Source: Dehalococcoidia bacterium (GTDB taxonomy: Bacteria > Chloroflexota > Dehalococcoidia > Lucifugimonadales > UBA1127). From it: a stretch of 64,000 nucleotides of DNA. Numbering within the stretch: the stretch's first letter is position 1; each line of letters starts with the position of its first letter. Made by a program: the position numbers and the translations under genes. Shown one piece after another: positions 8,482 through 56,024 of the stretch. The notes under the pieces are model-generated. The model did no database searches. It worked only from the letters and a program-made list of their open reading frames with translations, and was not told the origin of the DNA. The stretch spans positions 1,075,880 through 1,139,879 of the forward strand of contig CBDHDD010000002.1 of NCBI GenBank assembly GCA_965261405.1, read 5' to 3'.

Positions 8482-9864
8482 TTGAAGATAACCCGTGAAG
8501 AAGAAGCCGTCCGCCAAACTGTGCTCAATATTGAGATGGAAGAGGCGGATTTAGACAGCTACCTCCAACGCGCGTACCAACGCGTTGTCCAGAAGCTCAA
8601 GGTGCCCGGATTCCGTCCCGGCAAGGCGCCCCGGCGCGTTGTTGAGCGGATGGTTGGACGGGAATCTCTCCTCCATGAAGCGTTCGACTTCATGGTGCCG
8701 GAGGTCACCGCCCAGGCCATCGAACAAGAGGGCATCGAGGCGGGCGCTCAACCGGACGTAGAGGTCGTCGAGCATGACCCGGTCACCATAAAGGCCATCG
8801 TGCCCCTCACGCCGCTGGTCGAAACCGGCAACTATCTCTCTGTGCGGATCCCCTGGGTAACGCCAACGGTCACCGACGAACAGGTGGACGAGGCTCTCGA
8901 AGAGGCGCGCCGCAAGGAGGCCGTGTGGGAGCCCGTCGAGCGGACCGCGGAGATGGGCGACGACCTCACCATGGAATTCAAGGGCGTGGTAGACGGTGAG
9001 ACGATTGTGGAGCAGGATGACGCCGCCTTCGTTCTCGACCCGGAAGCCCCGATCGAGGGCTTCGGCGACGCCCTGACCGGGATCGCCTCCGGCGAGACCC
9101 GAGACTTCGAACTCCCCTTCCCGGACGAGTACTTCAATGAAAACCTGGCCGGGAAGATGTGCACATTCACGGTGACAGCCAAGGAGATAAAGGCCCAGGT
9201 CCTGCCGGAGTTGGACGATGAGTTCGCCAAGGGCGTGGACGACGGTTACGACTCCCTCGACGCCCTCAAGGACCACATCCGCGAGGAATTGCAGGGGGAG
9301 ATGGACCATGAGGACGAGCACACCTACCAGGACGCCGTGATGGCGGAGTTGCTCGTCGTCGGCTCTGTGGAACTGCCTCCCATCATGGTGGAGCGCGGCA
9401 TAGACAGCCACCTGCAGGAGATCCAGGACACTATCGGCCAGCGCATTGGCCGCTCCATTTCCCTTGAAGAGTACGTGGAGGTAACCAAGAAATCCGAGGA
9501 GGAGCTGCGGGAGGAGACTCGCGTCACCGTTGACGAGCAGCTCCGCCGGTCCTACCTTCTTACCCAGGTGGCCGAGAACGAGGGCATTGACCCGACCGAC
9601 GAGGACGTCGACGTGGAGATCGAGGAAATGGCGGTCCGCGCCGGTGAACAGGGCGAGCAGGTGCGCCAACTCTTCATGAGTCAGGAGAACCGCGACTCTG
9701 TCGCCCGCTCCATCCGCTCACGTATCACAGTGCAGCGGCTCGTTGACATCGCAAAGGGCGAGCCCGTAGCCGAGCAGCCTTCGGACGAAGCCGAGAGTGA
9801 GCCGGCAGACGCCGCCGAGACGAGCGAAGAACCAGCAGAGGAATCCACGGAGCAGGCCACCTAG
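8482..9864 (+). CDS. tig: trigger factor
   Basis: 460 aa. GFRPGKAP ribosome-binding signature, acidic C-terminal tail, conserved tig-clpP-clpX order. TTG start. Confidence 0.9.
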
Positions 9865-10605: not shown

Positions 10606-11916
10606 ATGGCCAGCAAGGTAAAGGGCGGAAACGACTACACTTGCTCCTTCTGCGGTAAGGCGCAGGGGCAGGTGAAGCGGCTGGTGGCAGGCCCAGGCCG
10701 GGTCTTTATCTGCGACGAGTGCGTTGCCCTTTGCCAGCAGATCATGGGCGACTACGCTGCAGCGGACGCGGCCACGGAGTCGGAGACGCCGGAAGCGGAG
10801 CAGGCCTCTCGCCGCGCCGAGTTTCTCCCGCCGAAGCTCATTTACGACAAATTGGACGAGTACGTTATTGGGCAGGAGCATGCCAAGAAGGTCCTCAGCG
10901 TGGCCGTCTATAACCATTACAAGCGCATCTGGAACTCAGCGGACAGTTTCAGCAGTGTGGAGATTCAGAAGAGCAACATCCTCCTCATCGGCCCCACCGG
11001 CAGCGGCAAGACCCTCCTCGCCCAGACCCTCGCCAAGATCCTCGACGTACCGTCCGCCATAGCGGACGCGACATCCCTAACCGAGGCTGGCTACGTCGGC
11101 GAGGACGTCGAGCACATTCTGCTGCGCCTCATCCAGGCGGCCGATTGGGACTTGAGCCGCGCCGAACACGGCATCCTCTACATTGACGAAATTGACAAGA
11201 TTGCCCGCAAGAGCCCGAATCCTTCCATCACCCGGGACGTCTCCGGCGAGGGCGTGCAACAGAGCCTCCTCAAGATAATCGAGGGCACCCAGGCGGCCAT
11301 CCCCCCGAATGGCGGCCGCAAGCACCCACACCAGGAGTTCCTCCAGTTCAAGACGGACAATATCCTCTTCGTGTGCGGCGGCGCCTTCGACGGTCTGGAG
11401 CAGGTCGTGGAAAGGCGCATCTTGAAGGACCGCCGCAGCATCGGCCTTGTCCGCGATGGTCGCAACCAGTCGGAAACCGGGGAACTTGAGAACATCCTGC
11501 AGCGAGTCAACAGCGATGACTTGCTGCAGTACGGCTTCATCCCGGAGCTTGTTGGCCGCTTCCCTGTCGTTGTAACCCTTGACCCGCTTTCCAAGGAAGA
11601 CCTCATACAGGTTCTCACAGAGCCCAAGAACGCAGTGATCAAGCAGTACCAGCACCTCTTCTCGTTGGACAACGTGGAACTAGTCTTCCAGCGAGACGCG
11701 CTGGAGGCCGCCGCAGAGGAGGCGATGACGCACAAGACCGGCGCACGCGGCCTTCGCACCATCATCGAGCGCACGCTGCTGGACGTCATGTACGAACTGC
11801 CGTCTCTGGAAGGGATAAACCGCTGCCTTGTAGACGCGGAAGTGATACAGGGTAAAAAGCAACCCGTGCTCCTCACCTCGGCAGGCGACACCGTGGACTT
11901 GCCGCGGGCGGCGTAG
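10606..11916 (+). CDS. clpX: ATP-dependent Clp protease ATP-binding subunit ClpX
   Basis: N-terminal C4 zinc finger (CSFCGK...CDEC), Walker A GPTGSGKT, Walker [10 protein letters not shown]. Confidence 0.95.
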
Positions 11917-32166: not shown

Positions 32167-33156
32167 ATGGCATGGATCGGGCGAATCGTAATCCTACTCC
32201 TTCTCATACTTCCCATTGTCCTCACACTGGGACTCATCCTCATCTTCATCCCGGTCGGGTTGTGGTTGAGCGCCATCTTTGCGGGTGTGCCGGTCAGCCT
32301 GCTGAGCCTCATCGGGATGAAGCTGCGGAAGGTCAGCCCGAACGCCATCGTCGAGCCGCTCATCTCCATTACCAAGGCGGGGATTGACCTCGACATCAAC
32401 GAGATGGAAGCCCACTACCTGGCAGGCGGCAACGTGGGCCGCGTGGTATCCGCCATGATCTCCGCCGACAAGGCCAACATCGACCTGACATGGCAGCGCG
32501 CCACCGCCATCGACCTGGCGGGCCGCGACGTGCTGCAGGCGGTGCAGACGAGCGTCAACCCCCGCGTGATCAACACGCCGCGGGTGTCCGCTGTAGCCAA
32601 GGACGGCATCCAGCTCATCGCGGTGGCGCGGGTCACCGTGCGCGCCAACCTCGACCGCCTGGTCGGTGGCGCGGGTGAAGAGACCATCCTGGCCCGTGTC
32701 GGCGAGGGCACCGTCTCGGCAATCGGCTCCGCGGACGCGCACAAGGCCGTGCTGGAGAACCCAGACCAGATCTCGCGCAAGGTGCTCTCCGGCGGATTGG
32801 ACGCCGGGACCGCCTTCGAGATCCTCTCCATCGACATCGCCGACGTGGACGTGGGGCGCAACATCGGCGCGCAGCTGCAGATCGACCAGGCAGAGGCGGA
32901 CAAGCAGATCGCACAGGCGCGAGCTGAGCAGCGGCGCGCCATGGCCGTCGCGCAGGAGCAGGAGATGGTGGCCCGCACCCAGGAAATGCGCGCCCTTGTG
33001 GTGGAGGCCGAGGCAGAGGTGCCTAGAGCCATGGCGGAAGCTTTCCGAGCGGGCAACCTCGGCATCATGGACTACTACCGCATGCGGAACGTCCAGGCGG
33101 ACACTGCCATGCGCGAGAGCCTGGGCGACCAGCCGGAAGAAGGCACCCAGCCTTAA
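32167..33156 (+). CDS. floA: flotillin-like protein FloA (UPF0365/YqfA family)
   Basis: 329 aa. N-terminal hairpin membrane anchor, SPFH-like body and an EA-rich coiled coil. nfeD-floA synteny as in Bacillus yqeZ-yqfA. Confidence 0.85.
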
Positions 33157-33183
33157 GGACTCGGCGGCAGGAGCGGACCGGAT

Positions 33184-33651
33184 ATGGCCAACAATAGACT
33201 TGAAGAACTTCGACGGCGGGCGCAGGAGCGCATTCAACAGGTGCGTGAATCGATGGAGCGCGGCGAAGACGTTGCTCAATCCGCGCCACCGATGGAGGCT
33301 CCTCCGCCTCCGCCTGCTGAGCGGCGCAGAGAGTCCACGACTCGCGACGCCTACCAGGTAGGCCCGCAGTCCCTGGAAGGACCCTCGCTGGAGGGGCGCT
33401 CGCTGGAAGTGCCCGGCTATGAAACTCAGCGCACACAGCTTGAAGCCACGTTGATGGAGACGCTGCGGCCAACCTCCTTCTCTGAGGGGCCGCAGCGGCG
33501 ACCGGTCGCGCCCATCGCGACGCAGCGAGGGCGCCGCTCCAGGGCGGCCAAGGTGCTGAACAAGGACTCGCTGCGGCAGGCGATGCTCGCCATCGAGATC
33601 CTCGGGAAACCGGTCTCCGAGCGGCCGCCCCAAGGGCTTGGGGAGCTGTAA
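33184..33651 (+). CDS. hypothetical protein, largely disordered, in the yqfB position of the nfeD-floA operon
   Basis: 155 aa. AGGAG precedes the ATG. Pro/Arg/Glu-rich with a conserved-looking C-terminus LRQAMLAIEILGKP. Confidence 0.45.
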   Translation: MANNRLEELRRRAQERIQQVRESMERGEDVAQSAPPMEAPPPPPAERRRESTTRDAYQVGPQSLEGPSLEGRSLEVPGYETQRTQLEATLMETLRPTSFSEGPQRRPVAPIATQRGRRSRAAKVLNKDSLRQAMLAIEILGKPVSERPPQGLGEL

Positions 33652-33836
33652 GTCGTCAGCATCGCGACTGCCCTCGCTTCACCTCCACGGCGGGCCTGTT
33701 TCCGTGTGCACCCCAGATCCTTCCTTCCAAGAATCCGTCGAACCTCTTTCCCCTCGACGGCGGCGCGTGGCTGGGAGTATGGATATCCCATCCGGCGGCA
33801 GTAGTCGATACATGGGCGGCCAGATACGCAAATCAC

Positions 33837-34040
33837 ATTGTTCCAAAAATGGCGAAACAATCCCTGTCCCGCGAGACGCGTTCCGGATGGGAATTTTTGC
33901 TGTATGGGCGTGCGAATCCGTTCCGTTTCCGCGATGCGCAGAACGGTGTGGGTGCGTCTTGTTGCGGGATGTTGCTTCAGTCGGCATGGGGTGAGGGTAA
34001 CGAGTGGTGTCGCTTTGGGGCAAGGACCTCGTGTCAGGTT
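33837..34040 (+). repeat. long noncoding element family, diverged copy D
   Basis: Shares ordered blocks with copies A/B: ATTGTT...AACAAT stem, ACGGTGTGGG, CATGGGG.GA.GGTA, GGGGCAAG...GTGTCAGG. Ends about 75 nt before the enolase-family start. Confidence 0.4.
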
Positions 34041-34114
34041 TGGGGTTTCGCAGGGGACTGTTTCTCGCGTACCCTGTGCGCGTTCCAAGGTCATGCTGCA
34101 CTCATGGAGGGCCT

Positions 34115-35191
34115 ATGAAGATTGTTAGCTACGAGACCAGGGCTGTGGTTGTCCCTCGCGAGCCGGGGCCGCCCGTTGGGGGGGCGAACGTTGCGCCCTT
34201 TGTCGCGCTGACCCTGCGCACCGACGACGGCATCGAGGGGATCGGGTACGCGGGCTTCGTCAGCGACGTCATCCTCAAATCCCTCCACGAGTGCGTCAAC
34301 GCCATGGCGGAGCTGTCGATTGGCAGCGACCCAGCGTACATCGAGGCCATTGGCAAGCGGCTGCGCGCGGTGGGCGGCGGCTCGCCGGAGGGGATGGTCA
34401 CGCGGGCATCGGCGGCGGTGGACGTCGCGCTGTGGGACATCAAGGGGAAGGCGCTGGGGCAGCCCGTCCACAAGCTGCTGGGCGGCTATCGGGACCGGAT
34501 GCCCGCCTACGCGAGCGGGTTCCTGTGGCGCACCTACGACCTGGAAGCGCTTGCGACGACGGCCGCGCGGCTCGTGGATGAGGGGTATCGGTCGATGAAG
34601 TTTCGCATTGGTGGCGAGAAGACGCCGGCGGCAGAGGTGGAGCGCGCGCGCGTGATGCGGGAGGCCGTGGGCGACGGGGTCGACATCATGGTGGACATCA
34701 ACCAGGGGTGGGACGTCAATCAGTCGATCAGCATCGGGCGGCGGCTGGAGGAGTACGGGCTCTACTGGCTGGAGGACCCGACGGACCACCACGACTACCC
34801 GGGGCTGGCGCGGATCGCGGACGCGCTGACGACGCCCATCGCGGCGGGGGAGTACCACTACGGGCTTGCGCCGTTCCGGCACATGCTGGAGCACCGGAGC
34901 ATCGACATCGTGATGATCGACCTGCTGCGGGCCGGGGGCATCACGCAGTGGATGAAGGCGGCGCACATGGCGGAGGCGTTCAATCTGCCGGTGGTGAGCC
35001 ACCTGGCGCCGGAGATCATGGCGCACACGATGGTGGCGATCCCGAACGGGCTGACCGTGGAGAACATGCCGTGGAGCGCGGCGCTGTTCCAGGAGGTCCC
35101 GGCCATCGAGAACGGGGAGATCATCCTGACCGACAAGCCGGGGCTGGGGCTGGCGTGGGACTTGGAGGCGCTGGACGCGTTTGCGGCGTAG
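34115..35191 (+). CDS. enolase-superfamily enzyme (mandelate racemase / muconate lactonizing enzyme family)
   Basis: 358 aa from MKIVSYE behind GGAGGG. Metal ligands in DINQGW, WLEDP and the IDLLRAGG region. Confidence 0.85.
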   Translation: MKIVSYETRAVVVPREPGPPVGGANVAPFVALTLRTDDGIEGIGYAGFVSDVILKSLHECVNAMAELSIGSDPAYIEAIGKRLRAVGGGSPEGMVTRASAAVDVALWDIKGKALGQPVHKLLGGYRDRMPAYASGFLWRTYDLEALATTAARLVDEGYRSMKFRIGGEKTPAAEVERARVMREAVGDGVDIMVDINQGWDVNQSISIGRRLEEYGLYWLEDPTDHHDYPGLARIADALTTPIAAGEYHYGLAPFRHMLEHRSIDIVMIDLLRAGGITQWMKAAHMAEAFNLPVVSHLAPEIMAHTMVAIPNGLTVENMPWSAALFQEVPAIENGEIILTDKPGLGLAWDLEALDAFAA

Positions 35192-35310
35192 GGATCCCTC
35201 GTCGGGCCGAGGGATTGGGGAGCGGAGACGCCCCTGGGCCTCGCCTCTGCCCTGGATTCCCGCTTTCGCGGGAGCGACGGTTGGGGGAGTGCGGGCCGAG
35301 CGGCTGCGGC

Positions 35311-35575
35311 AGGTTGTTTTGGCATTCGATTTGTAGCTGGCGTGGCACACTTTAGCTACAAATCCAAGAATTTTTTTACAGAGAGAAAACAACCCCTCCT
35401 GTTGCTTGACGTGCTGCCATTGGCCATCGCTGTGGACCATGCCACCAACGATTAGGACGGCGCTCACGACGGTGTGGGAAGCCGTGATGTTGTGGTTGCG
35501 GTGGGGGTTTGCGACTACCATGGGGAGACGGTAGCGTTCTTCGGAGCGATGGGGCAAGAGGGCCGTGTCAGGGTG
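35311..35575 (+). repeat. long noncoding element family, copy A (first unit of a 309-bp tandem pair)
   Basis: Outer stem GGTTGTTTT / AAAACAACC encloses hairpin TTGTAGCT-loop(GGCGTGGCACACTT)-AGCTACAA. The tail ends GTGTCAGGGTG. Confidence 0.6.
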
Positions 35576-35620
35576 CGCCGACGCGCACGGGGTGGGGTTG
35601 CTGGTTTCATGGGAACGAGG

Positions 35621-35884
35621 ACTCGTTTCGGTAGTCGAATCGTAGCTGGCGTGGCACATTTCAGCTACAACTCCAATCTTTTGTTGCAAAACGGGCCCCC
35701 ACCCCTCCTGTTGCTTGACGCGCCGCCTCTGGCCATCGCTGTGGACCATGCCACGGACGTATAGGACGGCGCACACGACGGTGTGGGGGGCCGTGATGTC
35801 GTGGTTGCGGTGGGAGTTTGCGACTACCATGGGGAGACGGTAGCGTTCTTCGGAGCGATGGGGCAAGAGGGCCGTGTCAGGGTG
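35621..35884 (+). repeat. long noncoding element family, copy B (second unit of the tandem pair)
   Basis: Near-identical to copy A over the 3' two-thirds. Hairpin GTAGCT-loop(GGCGTGGCACATTTC)-AGCTAC. Tail GTGTCAGGGTG lies 309 bp after that of copy A. Confidence 0.6.
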
Positions 35885-35940
35885 GCGCGCCGTGCTGGGG
35901 GTGGGGGTGACGGCGGCGTGGGAACGGCGCGTGCGGGGGA

Positions 35941-36466
35941 CCCCCTTCGAGTGTCCTCAGGACAGGCTTTGACAGGCTCAGGGTGAACGGGGAACATCGC
36001 GCCACCTCTCTGGGTTCGTGCCTTCGCGGGAATGACGGTGAGGTTGGGTGGGTTCGTTGAGGGTGTTGGTAGAGGAAGGTGAGGTTCCCGCCTGCGCGGG
36101 AACGACGGGATGGGGCGGGAACGACAATGGGGTGGGGCGGGACGGCAAGTGCCGGTGGTCGCGGGAGGCCCCCTTCGAGTGTCCTCACGACAGGCTTCGA
36201 CAGGCTCAGGGCGAACGGGTGTTGGGGGGTGCGGGGTTCCACGATGGTGGGCTGTGATGGGGTTGCCCGGCCCGGCGCCCCTCTGGATACCGGCTTTCGC
36301 CGGTATGTCGGTGGGGTGGGGCGGGTTTGTTGAGCTTGTTGGTTGAGGAAGGTGAGGTTCCCGCCTGCGCGGGAACGACGGTGGGGTGGGAACGACGGTG
36401 GGGGGGTGTGGGTCGGTTGGCGCTGCTGGTCGCGGGGGGCCCTTCGACAGGCTCAGGGCGAACGGA
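35941..36466. repeat. composite REP-like array (types A and B) with an internal duplication of about 274 bp
   Basis: REP-B at 35941-35992, 36169-36219 and 36438-36465. REP-A hairpins at 36084-36103, 36288-36307 and 36357-36376. Block 36045-36219 is repeated at 36319-36465. Confidence 0.7.
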
Positions 36467-36554
36467 GTTGCGAGGGGGCCGTACGAATTTTGGCGTTTGG
36501 GGTGTTCCGACGGTGGGTGGGTTGGTATTACGAAACTTTGGTGAGAGGGATGAG

Positions 36555-37385
36555 ATGTACGGACTTGAGGGTAAGGTGGCTTTGGTTACTGGGGCTGGCG
36601 GGGAGAATGGGATGGGCCGGGGGATTGCGACTCGGCTGGCGCGGGAGGGGGCGGATGTGATCGTGAATGACTTCACGGCTATTCCGTACCCGGACCGCCC
36701 TTGGCGCGGGGTGTCGTCGGTGGTCGAGGAGATCGAGGAGATGGGGCGGCGGTCGAAGGCGATCATCGCGGACGTGTCGGACACGGCGCAGGTGGGGGCG
36801 ATGTTCGCGGAGGCGGTGGCGGAGTTCGGGAAGATTGACATCGTCGTATCGAACGCAGGCTCGCGGCCCGGGGGCGATCGGAAGGTGATGGTCGACGTGT
36901 CGGACGAGGACTTCGACCTGGTGCAGCGGGTGAACGTGCGGGGGACGTGGCTGGTGTGCCAGGCGGCGGCTCGGCACATGATTGCGCGCGGCGGGGGCGG
37001 CCGGATCATCACGATGTCATCGCGCGCGGGCAAGACGGGGACGGCGACGTACGCGGCGTACTGCGCGAGCAAGTTTGCGGTGATTGGGATCACGCAGAGC
37101 CTGGCGCTGGAGTTGGCGCAGTACGGGATCACGGTGAACGCGATCTGTCCGGGGCTGGTGGACACGGAGCGGGTGGACTACATCGCGGCGGCGACGGCGC
37201 CCGAGGGGCAGAGTGCGATGGAGCACCGGGCGTTCATGGTGCGGGAGCGGTCGGCGACGATCCCGCTGGGACGGCTGGCCGTGGCAGCGGACATCGCGCG
37301 GGTGGTGGCGTTCCTGGCGTCGGAGGAATCGGACTACGTCACGGGGCAGGCGCTGAACGTGGCGGGGGGGTACGAGGTGCATTAG
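36555..37385 (+). CDS. short-chain dehydrogenase/reductase (SDR)
   Basis: 276 aa from MYGLEGKVALVTGAGGENGMG (TGxxxGxG), with the catalytic YAAYCASK (YxxxK). The upstream part of the ORF is REP-derived and rejected. Confidence 0.85.
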   Translation: MYGLEGKVALVTGAGGENGMGRGIATRLAREGADVIVNDFTAIPYPDRPWRGVSSVVEEIEEMGRRSKAIIADVSDTAQVGAMFAEAVAEFGKIDIVVSNAGSRPGGDRKVMVDVSDEDFDLVQRVNVRGTWLVCQAAARHMIARGGGGRIITMSSRAGKTGTATYAAYCASKFAVIGITQSLALELAQYGITVNAICPGLVDTERVDYIAAATAPEGQSAMEHRAFMVRERSATIPLGRLAVAADIARVVAFLASEESDYVTGQALNVAGGYEVH

Positions 37386-40270: not shown

Positions 40271-41941
40271 CTACAAGGAGCCGTCTATGATCACGTCCAA
40301 AAGGGCCGGTCTGCCGGAGGCGACGGCGCGGTCGATGGCGGGCTTGATCTGGGAGGGCTCAGTGATGCGCTCGCCGTGGACGCCCATGCTGTTGGCGATA
40401 GATGCCATGTCGAAGGGGGCGGCGAAATCGGAGTAGGGCAACCGTCCCCCTGAGGTCTCCGGCAAGCCGAGGATCTCGCCCTGGTAGACGTTGAAGTTGA
40501 CCTTGAGGACGCGGTACATGCCGTTGTTGAGGATGACGAAGACGCAGGGGATGTTGTCGTTGGCGGCGGTCCAGAGCCCCTGAACCGTCATCATGGCACT
40601 GCCGTCGCCGATGATGCCGAAGACGGGGCGGCCGGGGTAGGCGACCTGGGCGCCCATGGTCGCGCCGATGCCGCCGCCGATGGACTGCCCGCGGACAGCG
40701 CGGATGTCGCCGCGACGGGCGGCGTGGAAGTAGTGTCGCAGGGGGCCGCGGTTGCTGATGGCGTCGTCGACGACGACGGCGTCGCGGGGGAGGGCGGCGG
40801 CAAGCTCGGACATCATGCGGGCCGGGCTCATGGGACGGTGGTCCCACCGCTCGGCGACGGACTCCTCGAAGGCCGCGCGGTTGCTGCGGGCCTCAGCGAC
40901 GACGGCGCGGCGGCGTTGCTCGATGGCGGGCAGGCCGGCGGGAGACAACCGCTCCTTCACGAGCGCGGTCAACTCGGCGAGGGCGAGACCGCAGTGGGCG
41001 ACGATGCCAACGCCGGTGGGCTCGGAGCGGCCGATGCGTCCGGGGACGGGGTCGATGTGCACGAGGCTGGCTTCGGGGGGCAGGATGACGTCGCCCCAGT
41101 AGAAGAGCTCCTCGAAGGGGTCGGCGCCCACGGCCAGGACGAGGTCAGCGGACTGCACGGCAGCGCGCGAGGCGGCGACGCGCAGGGAGAGGTTGCCGAG
41201 GAACTGGGGATGGGCGGTGGGGAATGCCACCTCTGCGCCCCGGGCCTGGTAGACCGGAAGGCCCATGAGCTCCGCCAACTCCACCGCCTGTGCGTTGCCG
41301 TCATCGTCGGAGAGGCGGTCGCCCACCAACATGATGGGGCGGGCGGCGTCGAGCAGCAGGGAGGCGGCGCGAGCGATGCCCTCCGCGCTGGGGCGCGTGG
41401 CGTCGAAGGCGGGCCGGGAGGGCACGATGTTCATCTCGGCGATGCCCTCGAGGGCGTTGGAGGCGAGTCCGACGTAGACGGGCCCCTTCGGATGACTGTT
41501 GGCCTCGTTGAAGGCGCGGCGGAGAGCGCTGGGAACCTGGCCGGGGTGGGAGAGCTCGACGGCCCACTTGGTGACCGGCCGGACGAGCTGGGCCAAATCG
41601 GTCATGGACTCATTCACCTTGCGGACATCGTAGTTGGCGGAGGTGACGACCATGGGTGTGCCGGTGTTGAGGGCGTCGAGCATGAGGGCGATGCCGTTGG
41701 CGAGCCCGCTGTCGACGTGGAGGCTGACGAAGGAGGCGCGACCGGTAGCACGGGCGTAGGACTCGGCCATGCCCATGGCGACGCTTTCCTGGAGGGTCAG
41801 GAAGTAGCGAATCTCCGGGTAGTCGCCAAGCAGGTCGATGATGGGCGCCTCGCTGGTGCCAGGGTTGCCAAAGATGTACTCGACACCCTCGGCCTTGAGC
41901 ATTTCAAGCAGCGCCTGCTTGCCGGTCATCGATTCAGCCAT
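40271..41941 (-). CDS. thiamine-diphosphate-dependent enzyme, acetolactate synthase / benzoylformate decarboxylase-like
   Basis: 556 aa with three-domain TPP-enzyme architecture. GDGSAMMTVQGLWTAANDNIP TPP-binding motif. Confidence 0.85.
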   Translation of the reverse strand: MAESMTGKQALLEMLKAEGVEYIFGNPGTSEAPIIDLLGDYPEIRYFLTLQESVAMGMAESYARATGRASFVSLHVDSGLANGIALMLDALNTGTPMVVTSANYDVRKVNESMTDLAQLVRPVTKWAVELSHPGQVPSALRRAFNEANSHPKGPVYVGLASNALEGIAEMNIVPSRPAFDATRPSAEGIARAASLLLDAARPIMLVGDRLSDDDGNAQAVELAELMGLPVYQARGAEVAFPTAHPQFLGNLSLRVAASRAAVQSADLVLAVGADPFEELFYWGDVILPPEASLVHIDPVPGRIGRSEPTGVGIVAHCGLALAELTALVKERLSPAGLPAIEQRRRAVVAEARSNRAAFEESVAERWDHRPMSPARMMSELAAALPRDAVVVDDAISNRGPLRHYFHAARRGDIRAVRGQSIGGGIGATMGAQVAYPGRPVFGIIGDGSAMMTVQGLWTAANDNIPCVFVILNNGMYRVLKVNFNVYQGEILGLPETSGGRLPYSDFAAPFDMASIANSMGVHGERITEPSQIKPAIDRAVASGRPALLDVIIDGSL

Positions 41942-41986: not shown

Positions 41987-42048
41987 GCCGGAATGCGGGA
42001 ATGCCGGAATGCCGGAATGCCGGAATGCCGGAATGCCGGAATGCCGGA
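41987..42048. repeat. octanucleotide microsatellite (CCGGAATG)n, about 7.75 units
   Basis: Seven full units (one with a C-to-G variant) plus a partial unit, beginning 46 nt upstream of the ATG of the TPP-enzyme gene. Confidence 0.9.
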
Positions 42049-45500: not shown

Positions 45501-46475
45501 ATGACGGAGTTCACTCTCGACGTGCATCTTGACGGGCGCGGGGTCCTCGACACCATCGGAGAGGATGTCCGCCGAGGCCTCACTGCGCCCCAGAAATACC
45601 TATTCCCCAAGTACCTTTACGATGCTACCGGTTCCCTCATCTTCGAGCAGATTACGGAGCTGCCGGAGTACTACCCCACCCGTACCGAGCTCGCCATCCT
45701 CTGTGCGCAGGGGGCGGATATACTCCATCGCGCCGCGCCCCACGAGCTGCTGGAGCTGGGCTCCGGTGCATCCACCAAGGTCCGCACCTTACTGGACGCC
45801 CGCCCAAACGTGGACACCCCCGGGCGATACGTGGCCTTCGACGTGAGCGAGTCCATCGTTCGGTCCGCGGGCGACGAATTGCTGGAACGCTACCGCGGCC
45901 TGGAGCTGCACGGCGTCATCGGCGACTTCGAACGGCACCTGGGTATGGTCCCGCCAGCGATTGGTCGACGGCTCGTGCTATTCCTGGGCAGCACCCTGGG
46001 CAACCTTGAGCAGTCGGAGCAGTGCGCCATGCTGGCGGAGATTCAAATGCTGTTGGTCCCCGGAGACTCCCTGCTGCTGGGGGTTGACCTGGTGAAGGAC
46101 GTGTCGGTGCTGGAGGCCGCCTACAACGACGCTGCCGGCGTCACCGCCGCCTTCAGCCGCAACATCCTGAGCGTAATCAACAACGCCCTCCATGCGGACT
46201 TTGACCAAGAGGACTTTCGCCATGGCGCCCACTACAACCCGGACGCCGCTCGCATCGAAATACGCCTTCATGCCAAGCGCGCGAACTCCGTCCGCATTGC
46301 AGACCTCGACCTGACCGTGGACTTCGCGGAGGGCGAGTCCATTTGGACGGAAAACTCCCACAAGTTCACCCGGGAACTCGCCGCTAGGCTCCTGGAATCG
46401 TCGGGCATGGCGATTGAGGCGTGGTACACGGATGAACAGGAGTACTTTGGCCTCGCCCTGGCGTCGGCGTCCTAG
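45501..46475 (+). CDS. egtD: L-histidine N(alpha)-methyltransferase (ergothioneine biosynthesis)
   Basis: 324 aa. PKYLYD..GS.LFE.IT.LPEYYPTR signature of EgtD. Directly upstream of egtB. Confidence 0.85.
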   Translation: MTEFTLDVHLDGRGVLDTIGEDVRRGLTAPQKYLFPKYLYDATGSLIFEQITELPEYYPTRTELAILCAQGADILHRAAPHELLELGSGASTKVRTLLDARPNVDTPGRYVAFDVSESIVRSAGDELLERYRGLELHGVIGDFERHLGMVPPAIGRRLVLFLGSTLGNLEQSEQCAMLAEIQMLLVPGDSLLLGVDLVKDVSVLEAAYNDAAGVTAAFSRNILSVINNALHADFDQEDFRHGAHYNPDAARIEIRLHAKRANSVRIADLDLTVDFAEGESIWTENSHKFTRELAARLLESSGMAIEAWYTDEQEYFGLALASAS

Positions 46476-46502
46476 CGCACTACGCGCTGGGCCCAAGGAG
46501 GA

Positions 46503-47789
46503 GTGATGATAGAGGCAACAACGGAAGCGGGCCTCACAACACCCTTGCCCTCGCTGGCGGAGCGCTACCGGCGGGTGCGCCAGTGGACGGAGCAGCTCTG
46601 CAGCCCCCTGGCGACGGAGGACTACGTCATCCAGTCCATGCCGGACGCGAGCCCCGTACGCTGGCACCTTGCGCACACCACTTGGTTCTTCGAGACCTTT
46701 GTCCTCAAGCCCTTCGTCCCGGACTACCAGCCCTACCACCCGCTGTACGAGTTCCTCTTCAACTCCTACTACAACGCCGTGGGGGCGCAATATCCCCGGC
46801 CGGAACGCGGCCTTCTCTCCCGCCCCTCCGTCAGCGAGGTGTACCAGTACCGCTCCCACGTGGACCACGCGCTGCTGGACTACATCGAGACCGCCACGCG
46901 GGAGCAGGTGGCGCGCCTTGAAGAGACCCTGGTCCTCGGCTTCAACCATGAGCAGCAGCATCAGGAATTGCTCATAACGGACCTGAAGCACATGCTCTCC
47001 CACAACCCGCTGGAGCCGGTGTACACGCCAGCGCCCCCGTCGTCGCCAAGCATCGTGCCCGAGTTGCGGTGGGTGAGCATCCCCGGCGGCTTGTACACCG
47101 TAGGCCACGAGGGGGGAGGCTTCAGTTTCGACAGCGAGGGACCGCGGCATCAGACGCTGCTACAGGACGCCAGGATCGCCTCGCGCCTGGTCACCACCGG
47201 GGAATACCTCGAATTCATGGGGGACGGCGCGTACCAACGCTCCGACCTCTGGCTCTCCGACGGCTGGCGCACCGTCCAAGAGCAGGGCTGGTGCGCGCCC
47301 CTCTACTGGGTGGAACGCGACGGAGCGTGGTGGCAGTTCACCCTGCATGGCATGCGCCCCGTCGACCTCGCCGAGCCCGTTTGCCACGTGAGCCACTACG
47401 AGGCGGACGCCTTCGCCCGCTGGGCCGGCGCGCGCCTTCCCACGGAGGCGGAATGGGAGGTGGCGGCTTCCTCGCTGCCCACCCATGGCAACTTCGCGGA
47501 GTCGCGCGCCTTCCATCCGACGCCGGCCCCGGACGCGTCCGGCAGCATGACGCAGGCCTTCGGCGACGTATGGGAGTGGACGCAGAGCGCCTATTTGCCG
47601 TACCCCGGCTTCCGCGCGGCCCCCGGCGCCATCGGCGAGTACAACGGCAAGTTCATGTCCGGCCAGATGGTGTTGCGGGGCGGCTCCTGCGCCACACCTG
47701 CATCCCACATCCGCGCCACGTACCGCAACTTCTTCCCACCATCCGCTCGCTGGCAGTTTACCGGCCTTCGCCTTGCACAGGACGCGTAG
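46503..47789 (+). CDS. egtB: hercynine oxygenase / sulfoxide synthase (ergothioneine biosynthesis)
   Basis: 428 aa. N-terminal DinB-like domain with the HEQQHQE iron-binding motif and a C-terminal FGE-sulfatase-like domain. Confidence 0.85.
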   Translation: MMIEATTEAGLTTPLPSLAERYRRVRQWTEQLCSPLATEDYVIQSMPDASPVRWHLAHTTWFFETFVLKPFVPDYQPYHPLYEFLFNSYYNAVGAQYPRPERGLLSRPSVSEVYQYRSHVDHALLDYIETATREQVARLEETLVLGFNHEQQHQELLITDLKHMLSHNPLEPVYTPAPPSSPSIVPELRWVSIPGGLYTVGHEGGGFSFDSEGPRHQTLLQDARIASRLVTTGEYLEFMGDGAYQRSDLWLSDGWRTVQEQGWCAPLYWVERDGAWWQFTLHGMRPVDLAEPVCHVSHYEADAFARWAGARLPTEAEWEVAASSLPTHGNFAESRAFHPTPAPDASGSMTQAFGDVWEWTQSAYLPYPGFRAAPGAIGEYNGKFMSGQMVLRGGSCATPASHIRATYRNFFPPSARWQFTGLRLAQDA

Positions 47790-52041: not shown

Positions 52042-52137
52042 GGGGGAGCCACAGGTCACGGCGGTGGGGGTTCAGGATTTGTGACCATGGTCATGACTAT
52101 GGTATTATTCAATGAAATATGTGAGCAGGATAGGGCG

Positions 52138-52416
52138 ATGACGACAAACAACGAAACGGGTTCAACTCGGACCATCAAGGCGTCAGAGTTCAAGGCAAAA
52201 TGCCTGCAGCTCATGGACGAAGTGGCGGAGAGCGGCGAGGAAATCGTCATCACGAAATTCGGGAAGCCGGTGGCGAAGCTTATGCCGCTCCGGCAGAAGC
52301 CTAAGACTCTCTTCGGCATCGACCGCGGGCGTATCGAAATCCTTGGCGATATCGTGTCGCCATTAGATGAGGAGTGGGACGCCGAGACCGGCAAGAACTG
52401 GATTGAGCCACTGTAA
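52138..52416 (+). CDS. type II antitoxin, Phd/YefM family
   Basis: 92 aa. IKASEFKAKCLQLMDEV...EEIVITKFGKPVAKLMP. Its stop overlaps the start of the PIN toxin gene by 1 nt. Confidence 0.75.
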   Translation: MTTNNETGSTRTIKASEFKAKCLQLMDEVAESGEEIVITKFGKPVAKLMPLRQKPKTLFGIDRGRIEILGDIVSPLDEEWDAETGKNWIEPL

Positions 52417-55596: not shown

Positions 55597-55938
55597 CTTG
55601 TTCTGTGGCTGGTTTGGCACGTTGCAGAAACAAGTGGAACGGCGGAGGTTGTTTTCCGGCCAAGCCGTAGCCGGAGGGAGGTTGTTTCCAGTGATCGTTT
55701 TGTAGCTGGTTTGGCACATTGCAGATACAAGACGATTATTTTTCGCGCTGGGGGAAACAACCTCCGGGTCCGTCCCAGGGGTCATGGCGCCCTCGGCCGT
55801 CGATGCGGACCATGCGGGTGAGGGGAAAGGGGCGCGCGGCGTGGCGGCGATGCCCGGTTTCAGGTTCTTGATTGCGTGTTGCACGGTTGGAGAGTAGCGG
55901 GTTCGCCGGCTTTGGCACAAGGGGCTGGTGTCAGGGTG
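55597..55938 (+). repeat. long noncoding element family, copy C (with an extra head hairpin and duplicated left arm)
   Basis: Perfect 13-bp outer stem GGAGGTTGTTTCC (55677-55689) / GGAAACAACCTCC (55753-55765) enclosing hairpin TTGTAGCTG...CAGATACAA with a TGGCAC loop. Second left arm at 55644-55657. Extra hairpin at 55597-55634. Tail GTGTCAGGGTG at 55928-55938. Confidence 0.55.
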
Positions 55939-56024
55939 CGTGGTCAGGGGACACCCCCATCCCAACCCGCTCCCGTATCGGGGTACGGGGCATGCTTCGC
56001 AAGCAGGACGACACCCCGGCGTGG

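Follow-up and report, generated by a model that had tools for sequence, protein, structure and literature searches.

Modular, hairpin-bearing repeats in the intergenic spacers of sponge-associated Chloroflexota: a small non-coding family that may carry a portable promoter

A 64,000-nucleotide stretch of the genome of a Dehalococcoidia bacterium (contig CBDHDD010000002.1, positions 1,075,880 to 1,139,879; hereafter the window, with a GC content of 62-68%) contains, after an enolase-superfamily gene at 34115-35191, two head-to-tail copies of an element that begins with an AT-rich palindrome and ends in a G-rich box. These copies, units A and B, belong to a small, previously undescribed repeat family, whose behavior is closer to that of a dispersed extragenic repeat than to that of a conserved, well-expressed RNA gene. 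The reading that we favor, at a probability of roughly 0.45, is that of a lineage-restricted family of modular, structured, non-coding extragenic repeats of sponge-associated Chloroflexota, similar in kind to BIME, BOX, and ERIC elements and possibly furnished with a portable promoter. Its grounds are the patchy occupancy of the loci among relatives, the multi-copy depth of the hairpin in metagenomes, the mosaic arrangement of the modules, and the tandem placement of units among REP-type repeats, together with hairpins that are compensatorily maintained, a body that has no fold, and the lack of an abundant transcript.

Units A (35312-35617) and B (35621-35926) lie on the plus strand with a period of 309 bp, the tail GTGTCAGGGTG being found at 35565 and again, 309 bp further on, at 35874. 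A repeat search returned two matches between them at a spacing of 309, one of 226 nt and 88% identity (35392-35617 versus 35701-35926) and one of 61 nt and 80% identity (35316-35376 versus 35625-35685); TRF did not report the tandem pair. The first-pass annotation of this DNA, made from the sequence alone, had described two head-to-tail units 309 bp apart with an outer 9-bp stem, and these coordinates are exact: the 5' strand of the stem, GGTTGTTTT, is at 35312-35320 and its 3' strand, AAAACAACC (family consensus GRAAACAAYYCC), at 35386-35394. It had also given tails of about 70 nt as identical, and by comparison the final 69 nt (TTTGCGACTACC...GTGTCAGGGTG) are the same in both units. Two of its details needed revision, however, because the inner hairpin, correctly located and with the motif GGCGTGGCAC in its loop as described, has arms of 14 nt (93% complementary) rather than 8 bp, and because the unit does not end at GTGTCAGGGTG, as the similarity between A and B extends about 45 nt beyond it. 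On the other side, homology to further copies starts some 15-35 nt 5' of 35312, with an extra outer 5' strand and/or a half hairpin, GTAGCYG.GGG. In counts over the window, the loop pattern has four exact matches, all inside family units, and five when one mismatch is allowed, versus 0.71 expected from shuffles; the tail pattern has five, versus 0.28 expected, and the four that are exact lie in family units.

Four parts can be distinguished in a unit. The first is an imperfect AT-rich palindrome of 80-120 bp, composed of an outer helix, o (consensus GGAATTGTTTC / GAAACAATTCC), and an inner hairpin, H (GTAGCTG, loop, CAGCTAC), whose loop of 13-15 nt retains (G/T)TGGCAC. It is followed by a C-rich linker, CCCnGTCC, by a variable middle segment of 0-100 nt, which in A, B, and D exceeds that of the other copies by about 100 nt, and by a G-rich 3' box, which consists of CATGGGGnGAGGGTAGCG, a small hairpin of variable sequence, and GGGGCAAGGGnnnGGTGKCAGGG. 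The sequence of this box is kept in every copy, and in every copy GTAG precedes the small variable hairpin. Unit A contains 5' palindrome, linker, middle segment, and 3' box, with H at 35325-35367 (arms 35325-35338 / 35354-35367, loop GGCGTGGCACACTTT) and the box at 35519-35575 (CATGGGGAGACGGTAGCG, the hairpin CGTTC-TTCG-GAGCG at 35535-35548, then GGGGCAAGAGGGCCGTGTCAGGGTG), and in addition a trailing hairpin, GTGCGC-CGAC-GCGCAC, at 35573-35588, which is not kept in B or in other paralogs. In unit B the outer helix is formed by CTCGTTT (35622-35628) and AAACGGG (35689-35695), the inner hairpin (35641-35669) consists of CGTAGCTG, the loop GCGTGGCACATTT, and CAGCTACA, and the 3' box at 35828-35884 has the same sequence as that of A.

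The window holds further copies, all of them on the plus strand like A and B, and paralogs within it are 60-88% identical. Copy C (33800-34043), which ends 70 nt 5' of the enolase-family gene, is of a serial type: a degenerate hairpin at 33800-33827 precedes the small outer-stem hairpin (ATTGTTCC at 33837-33844 / GAAACAAT at 33854-33861) instead of being nested inside it, and the 3' box follows at 33985-34038. Copy D (55645-55945) starts with an extra o5' strand (55645-55658) and a half hairpin, GTAGCCGG, and continues as a full unit from 55677 to 55945, with helix o at 55677-55689 / 55753-55765, H at 55697-55735, and the 3' box at 55882-55938. Just ahead of it stands D0 (55597-55634), a solo hairpin, CTTGTTCTG...CAGAAACAAG with the loop TGGCTGGTTTGGCACGTTG, which has no 3' box of its own. 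Related copies in a single orientation had been noted before at 33837-34040 and 55597-55938; their existence and orientation stand, whereas their extents become those given here.

Relatives were represented by syntenic contigs fetched via orthologs of the two flanking enzymes, to which one locus from a metagenome collection, L035, was added. Two of them, L040 and L039, about 96% identical to the window in the enolase-family gene, have orthologs of A, B, and C (in L040, A corresponds to 11115-11420 and B to 11427-11740), and the tandem pair must therefore be older than the split between these close relatives. Elsewhere the picture changes from genome to genome. In L027 the same site is taken by a tandem pair whose 5' part is very different; L028 lacks units behind the enolase-family gene and has a pair between the Amidohydro_2 and ThiS genes; L042 has one unit, between the hydantoinase and monooxygenase genes; and unit D is absent from L041, L042, L044, and L045, whose spacers between the dehydrogenase and tRNA-Gly genes hold other REP-type repeats. 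A decayed relic was sought in the window's own Amidohydro_2 to ThiS spacer, in which only 8-nt collinear matches, not significant, were found. The modules themselves are also variable in their arrangement: H is nested in o in A, B, D, and the copies L28a, L28b, and L042, and comes first, with o closing a small loop, in C, L27, and L035; in several copies an additional o5' strand precedes the unit, together with a half hairpin; one hairpin, D0, stands alone; and the middle segment ranges from 0 to 100 nt. These comparisons show that units have been duplicated in tandem, rearranged in their modules, and gained or lost between related genomes.

Two further observations concern the same modules. 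Metagenomic joints at 35376/35551 and 35411/35860 fuse the 5' module or the linker directly to ATGGGGCAAG of the 3' box, which points to variants of the family whose middle segment is different or much shorter. Compared with the window, the ortholog of C in L040 (about 9700-9800) has about 100 nt duplicated internally, such that the ATTGTTCC strand appears a second time and the GCTGCATGGGCGTGCGCATCCG segment is repeated; this may be an assembly error, as L040 is a 4x long-read contig.

In sponge metagenomes, with matches of 82-85% identity accepted, coverage of the hairpin module is about 20 times as deep as that of the unique flanking DNA, and for the 3' box the factor relative to unique DNA is 2-10. 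Several of the runs that contain the sequence are labeled sponge metagenome or metatranscriptome, and the proteins encoded nearby find their best matches among 'Chloroflexota bacterium' proteins from metagenome-assembled genomes, with SAR202 more distant; an exact-sequence look-up of the window's enolase-family protein found none on record. Scans with the combined loop and tail pattern in a viral collection and 185,579 reference genomes gave chance matches only, of which blastn against all fetched loci supported none, and neither the plasmid and phage collections (for units) nor, under a strict tail pattern, metagenome contigs yielded any match. A looser tail pattern in metagenome contigs gave nine loci, one of them, L035, a true homolog, and a covariance-model search of the 225 kb of window and related loci found no copies beyond those from nhmmer. 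True relatives have come only from sponge-type Chloroflexota assemblies, plus the single metagenome contig L035.

The spacers that house the units are crowded with other repeats as well. At least three further REP-type families, CCCTTCGACAGGCTCAGGGYGAACGG, TTCCCGCYTKCGCGGGARCGACGG, and GGATACCGGCTTTCGCCGGTATG, occur in them, with members at 35254-35281, 35957-35990, 36078-36106, 36185-36218, 36285-36307, 36359-36386, and 36432-36465; their metagenomic depth rises to about 70,000, versus about 37 for unique DNA, and they are abundant in metatranscriptomes. The spacer 5' of tRNA-Gly(GCC) is wholly replaced by different repeats in each genome (56025-56140 in the window; near 11080-11380 in L041, L042, L044, and L045).

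Pairing in the 5' module was assessed by registering the helix strands by hand, joining them through an artificial GAAA spacer, and counting pairs in a census of about 12 sequences. For helix o (11 copies), 77.6% of the cells are paired, versus 34-51% with slid partners; seven pairs have changed on both sides, one column contains all four Watson-Crick pair types, and the 22 double-change cells compare with 10.8 ± 2.8 in shuffles, none of 500 reaching 22. For helix H (10 copies), 83.8% of the cells are paired, versus 21-41% when slid, with seven double-change pairs versus 3.4 ± 1.0 in shuffles (0 of 500) and 10 double-change cells versus 5.1 ± 1.5 (1 of 500). The significance of these values is overstated, because pairing guided the choice of register and the copies are not independent by descent, but the slid controls argue for a real effect. 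Both 5' helices are kept paired by compensatory change, in support of the earlier proposal of a structured, non-coding family. The 5' module is also more stable than its shuffles, with z = -3.6 for A and -6.3 for D and none of 200 shuffles as good.

This order does not continue into the rest of the unit. RNAalifold found no consensus structure for either the 3' box or the body, and the part that begins with the T run and reaches the 3' end is no more stable than its shuffles (z = -0.33 and +1.77). The mismatches in the helices are of little help in choosing between the nucleic acids: those of o comprise 10 G-T and 14 A-C cells and favor neither strand, and those of H, 13 G-T and 4 A-C, mildly favor the plus strand, with three of the four A-C cells coming from one lineage. 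Only the 5' palindrome, then, is structured, and the data fit action as RNA or as DNA alike. Several long-range pairings were considered and rejected because they work in one or two copies only (the terminal GUGKCAGGG with the linker, a TGGCAC/TGCCAC pseudoknot between loop and body, and a CUACC/GGUAG helix), as was a G-quadruplex in the 3' box, whose G tracts are not all kept, the second tract in unit A being GACGG. The earlier reluctance to place the elements in a known class is upheld by Rfam 15, which at the gathering score matched only the tRNA-Gly in the whole window and, at E <= 10 in 33500-36600 (the region of A, B, and C, not D), gave two noise matches outside the units.

The loop motif TGGCAC might suggest a sigma-54 promoter. 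That candidate was dismissed because the spacing between GG and GC is 9 or 6 nt and never the required 10: A and B have TGGCACACTTTAGC, that is GG-N9-GC, and D, D0, and L28b have TGGCAC(A/G)TTGCAG, that is GG-N6-GC. Motifs of the ECF type in the o3' strand were dropped for inconsistent spacing. A consensus scan was more informative for sigma-70, with the loop motif TTGGCA(C) serving as -35 element 17-18 nt 5' of an A/T hexamer: TTGGCA-17-GATTAT in D (55711-55739) and TTGGCA-17-GAAAAT in L28b stand at homologous positions, with 0.1 matches expected per region. In unit A the corresponding pair, GTGGCA-18-AAGAAT (35342-35371, followed by a T run at 35371-35377), falls below the threshold, and the commonest metagenomic variant at 35342, G>T, turns it into TTGGCA. 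Units B, L40B, L042, L28a, and D0 have poor promoter scores, and the serial copies lack the arrangement. The tRNA-Gly(GCC) gene has a near-consensus promoter, TTGACC-18-TATAAT, which is conserved in relatives and indicates that the organism uses canonical promoters. A promoter is therefore plausible, to judge from these hexamers, in the best-preserved units, and it is not a constant of the family.

Such a promoter would lead one to think of independent small-RNA genes, in which the AT-rich 5' module would be the promoter, transcription would start near the end of the T run, and a G-rich product of about 200 nt would act in trans, either through the C/U-rich stretch conserved at its 5' side (CCCUCCU / UCCC) or through the 3' box. 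The tandem pairs would be gene duplicates of the kind known from other multi-copy small-RNA families. This would account for the conservation of the loop as a -35 element, and it is in keeping with the retention of the 3'-box sequence in every copy and of the tandem pair in a close relative, besides the homologous hexamers of D and L28b and the variant that restores TTGGCA in A. However, the covarying helices lie upstream of the putative start and outside such a transcript, the body has neither consensus structure nor terminator (the plus strand has no terminator-like site where any of the units ends), L28a, L042, D0, and all serial copies match a promoter poorly or not at all, and the loci are not conserved between related genomes.

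The RNA data bear on the same question. Ten RNA or probable-RNA runs, seven labeled as metatranscriptomes and three of uncertain kind, were mapped on the units; they consist of assembled contigs from runs that cover this organism poorly, so a rare or conditional RNA could be present. In them the depth over units A-D is 0 almost everywhere, with a few contigs at depth 2-10, in the same runs in which the neighboring enolase-family mRNA has a depth of 2-9 and nearby REP repeats reach hundreds to thousands. One metatranscriptome contig (35387-35536, 91% identity) begins just after the T run, without the hairpin, as a small-RNA gene would have it; other contigs, at low depth (35551-35733), begin at the 3' end of A and read across the hairpin of B without a break. 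An abundant stable RNA is ruled out in these samples, and the idea of independent small-RNA genes appears doubtful to us, though it deserves to be kept in view. The structured RNA gene of the first-pass annotation fares no better, with structure limited to the 5' palindrome, an approximately 200-nt body that has neither a consensus fold nor excess stability, and almost no transcript. A bolder version, which we consider unlikely, would be a new class of non-coding RNA gene whose -35 element sits in the loop of a conserved DNA palindrome and is switched by hairpin extrusion or by a loop-binding factor, with the G-rich 3' box as the functional part, for example in a protein-sequestering RNA, or in a guide-like one that would serve, in trans, an enzyme whose gene lies elsewhere.

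Cis-regulatory RNAs had likewise been proposed, which would make a unit the leader (riboswitch or attenuator) of the gene that follows it. Copy C does stop 70 nt ahead of the enolase-family start codon, 90 nt separate the L042 copy from the luciferase-like monooxygenase gene after it, and most copies point toward a gene on the same strand. The L028 pair contradicts this proposal, as it is divergent from Amidohydro_2 and convergent with ThiS and has no same-strand gene downstream. The genes downstream of the copies are moreover unrelated (an enolase-family enzyme, an SDR, a tRNA-Gly with its own promoter, and a monooxygenase), A and B are about 650 nt from the next gene, and there is no conserved aptamer-like fold, all of which makes regulation in cis very improbable as the origin of the family.

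Protein conservation is scarcely credible. A minus-strand frame of 591 amino acids (34091-35866) is open through both units, and most 3' boxes contain ATG-N9-TAG on the plus strand. In the minus-strand frame, however, the codon differences between A and B comprise 5 synonymous and 17 non-synonymous ones, and the changes are distributed 13/7/7 over codon positions 1/2/3, with no third-position excess, in agreement with the earlier statement that coding does not explain the conservation; the frame runs antisense through the well-supported enolase-family gene, and direct reading found no small plus-strand open reading frame (ORF) shared by A, B, and D. The long frame is not coding; it owes its existence to the C-rich composition of the minus strand and can mislead gene callers. 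As a separate observation, the 3' boxes (35520-35534 and equivalents) nearly always have an in-frame ATG-N9-TAG or an earlier TGA, a mini-ORF of two to four codons, e.g., ATGGGGAGACGGTAG, which may be a coincidence of the CATGGGG...GGGTAG motif or a start-stop element.

With respect to mobility, none of the expected marks was found in the units. No terminal inverted repeats were found, the only inverted repeat that touches a unit in 33000-37000 being the internal hairpin, and the 5' end GGTTGTTTT and the 3' end GTGTCAGGGTG are unrelated. Filled and empty spacers of relatives are full of other REP-type repeats and cannot be aligned, and consequently insertion boundaries cannot be fixed and no target-site duplication can be defined. 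The ORFs scanned in the window and the genes listed for the related loci include no transposase, integrase, or reverse transcriptase and, more specifically, no Y1 transposase (including RAYT), TnpA, or TnpB; the neighbors are housekeeping genes with a few restriction-modification and toxin-antitoxin genes. Having neither terminal inverted repeats nor near-identical copies, the units do not look like an ordinary miniature inverted-repeat transposable element (MITE), and the suggestion of a nonautonomous mobile element holds in part: patchy occupancy and the approximately 20-fold hairpin depth favor a dispersed repeat, possibly a mobile and non-autonomous one, but there is no signature of mobility.

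A single-stranded DNA transposon of the Y1/HUH class (IS200/IS605 or REP/RAYT type) could in principle explain the lack of such marks, the units being non-autonomous derivatives moved in trans, with hairpins that serve as top-strand recognition structures for the enzyme and a body that could be a remnant resembling a guide RNA (of the omega-RNA type). The units have hairpins in place of terminal inverted repeats and no evident target-site duplication; covarying stems with a conserved loop would suit structure-specific recognition; helix o has no one-strand G-U preference, as expected of DNA; and the copies share a single orientation, that of the strand whose GC skew is positive. GTAG, furthermore, precedes or starts both hairpins (TTGTAGCTG... 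and GGGTAGCG...), and GTAG-tagged palindromes are substrates of REP-associated transposases and occur in Chloroflexi (PMC3733652). Yet in hairpin H the GTAG is base-paired, versus the unpaired tag that defines GTAG REPs, the copies are head-to-tail rather than in the inverted dimers typical of REPs, and the paralogs are old and divergent with no sign of recent transposition. Considering also that no Y1 transposase or TnpB appeared in the genes surveyed and that no Rfam family of transposon-associated RNAs matched, we regard this origin as improbable.

The reading as extragenic repeats is not free of difficulties either. Its RNA test is weak, as low-coverage metatranscriptome contigs cannot show absence; the promoter-like pair is good in only two of nine hairpin copies and missing from the serial ones; and the pair counts depend on a hand-set register and few independent copies (about 12 sequences). 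There is no mobility signature in the form of terminal inverted repeats, a definable target-site duplication, or near-identical dispersed copies, and no associated enzyme in the approximately 225 kb examined. A passive repeat leaves the conservation of the 3'-box sequence across otherwise very different paralogs unexplained, and it is this that keeps small-RNA genes alive as an alternative.

If the units are nevertheless extragenic repeats, they would spread and decay as selfish or near-neutral sequences in the manner of BIME, BOX, and ERIC, with local effects. The palindrome might fold in read-through transcripts or be extruded in supercoiled DNA. In the better-preserved copies, the loop motif may act as a sigma-70-like -35 element with the A/T linker as the -10, and a unit bearing such a promoter could be an obstacle to incoming transcription and at the same time the source of a short G-rich transcript directed at the gene downstream. 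Candidate routes of copying would be recombination or a hairpin-recognizing enzyme encoded elsewhere.

The units share considerable similarities with known repeats, but there are also significant differences. Like BIMEs and GTAG REPs, they are extragenic, moderately repeated, and clustered in spacers, their hairpin stems have complementary substitutions, their copy number and positions vary between related genomes, and GTAG lies at the foot of the small variable hairpin in the 3' box (PMC3733652). On the other hand, a unit measures 200-300 bp instead of 20-40 bp and is arranged head-to-tail instead of as an inverted dimer. The units also differ from BIMEs and REPs in the conserved 13-15-nt loop, the paired GTAG in H, and the long non-palindromic 3' box, and no RAYT gene has been seen.

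BOX elements of Streptococcus pneumoniae and the ERIC/IRU elements of enterobacteria are modular or long imperfect-palindrome intergenic repeats of 100-300 bp, non-coding, variable in module content, predicted to fold if transcribed, and thought to affect the expression of neighbors. The units resemble them in modularity, palindrome, and non-coding intergenic nature; they have no sequence relationship to them, however, and form a far smaller family, with a -35-like loop in the 5' module, in a few uncultivated Chloroflexota only. The Correia elements (CREE) of Neisseria and MITEs are small dispersed non-coding repeats that can bring promoters and form RNA hairpins, but they have terminal inverted repeats, target-site duplications, and many near-identical copies, none of which was found for the units. 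Head-to-tail small-RNA genes, each with a promoter-like segment and a conserved body, are known from the NsiR1 arrays of Nostoc, PrrF1/PrrF2, and OmrA/OmrB; compared with these, the units have no terminator, conserved fold, or abundant transcript, and their loci are not conserved. The Chloroflexi-1 and Poribacteria-1 RNA motifs are lineage-restricted, stem from Chloroflexi or sponge symbionts, and often occur in several nearby copies, but no Rfam family matched the units at the gathering score in the window, nor at E <= 10 in the region of A, B, and C. In function and behavior, BIME/REP mosaics, BOX, and ERIC come nearest to the family, which is a member of none of them.

Some other features of the window may be recorded. 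An 8-bp tandem repeat, GCCGGAAT x 7.8 with 96% matches, at 41987-42048, lies just 5' of a TPP-enzyme gene (40271-41941, minus strand), where it might form a tract prone to slippage within a promoter or 5' region. An ergothioneine-type pair of genes, egtD-like (histidine methyltransferase, Methyltransf_33) and egtB-like (DinB_2 + FGE-sulfatase), occupies 45501-47789 between the hydantoinase and luciferase-like monooxygenase genes and is absent from that place in L042. An ORF resembling a Phd/YefM-type antitoxin is found at 52081-52416, and a homolog is annotated at the corresponding place in L041.

Finally, if the units are indeed extragenic repeats, a modular, structured repeat family would be added to sponge-associated Chloroflexota, in which such elements have hardly been described. 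For annotation, the family matters in that it gives rise to a long antisense ORF that is spurious and interrupts short-read assemblies in these spacers, and, with spacer occupancy differing between close relatives, the units could be used as strain-typing markers. If instead a promoter does reside in the hairpin, or the units are small-RNA genes, these uncultured organisms would provide a compact natural promoter within a covarying palindrome, together with a candidate regulatory RNA.

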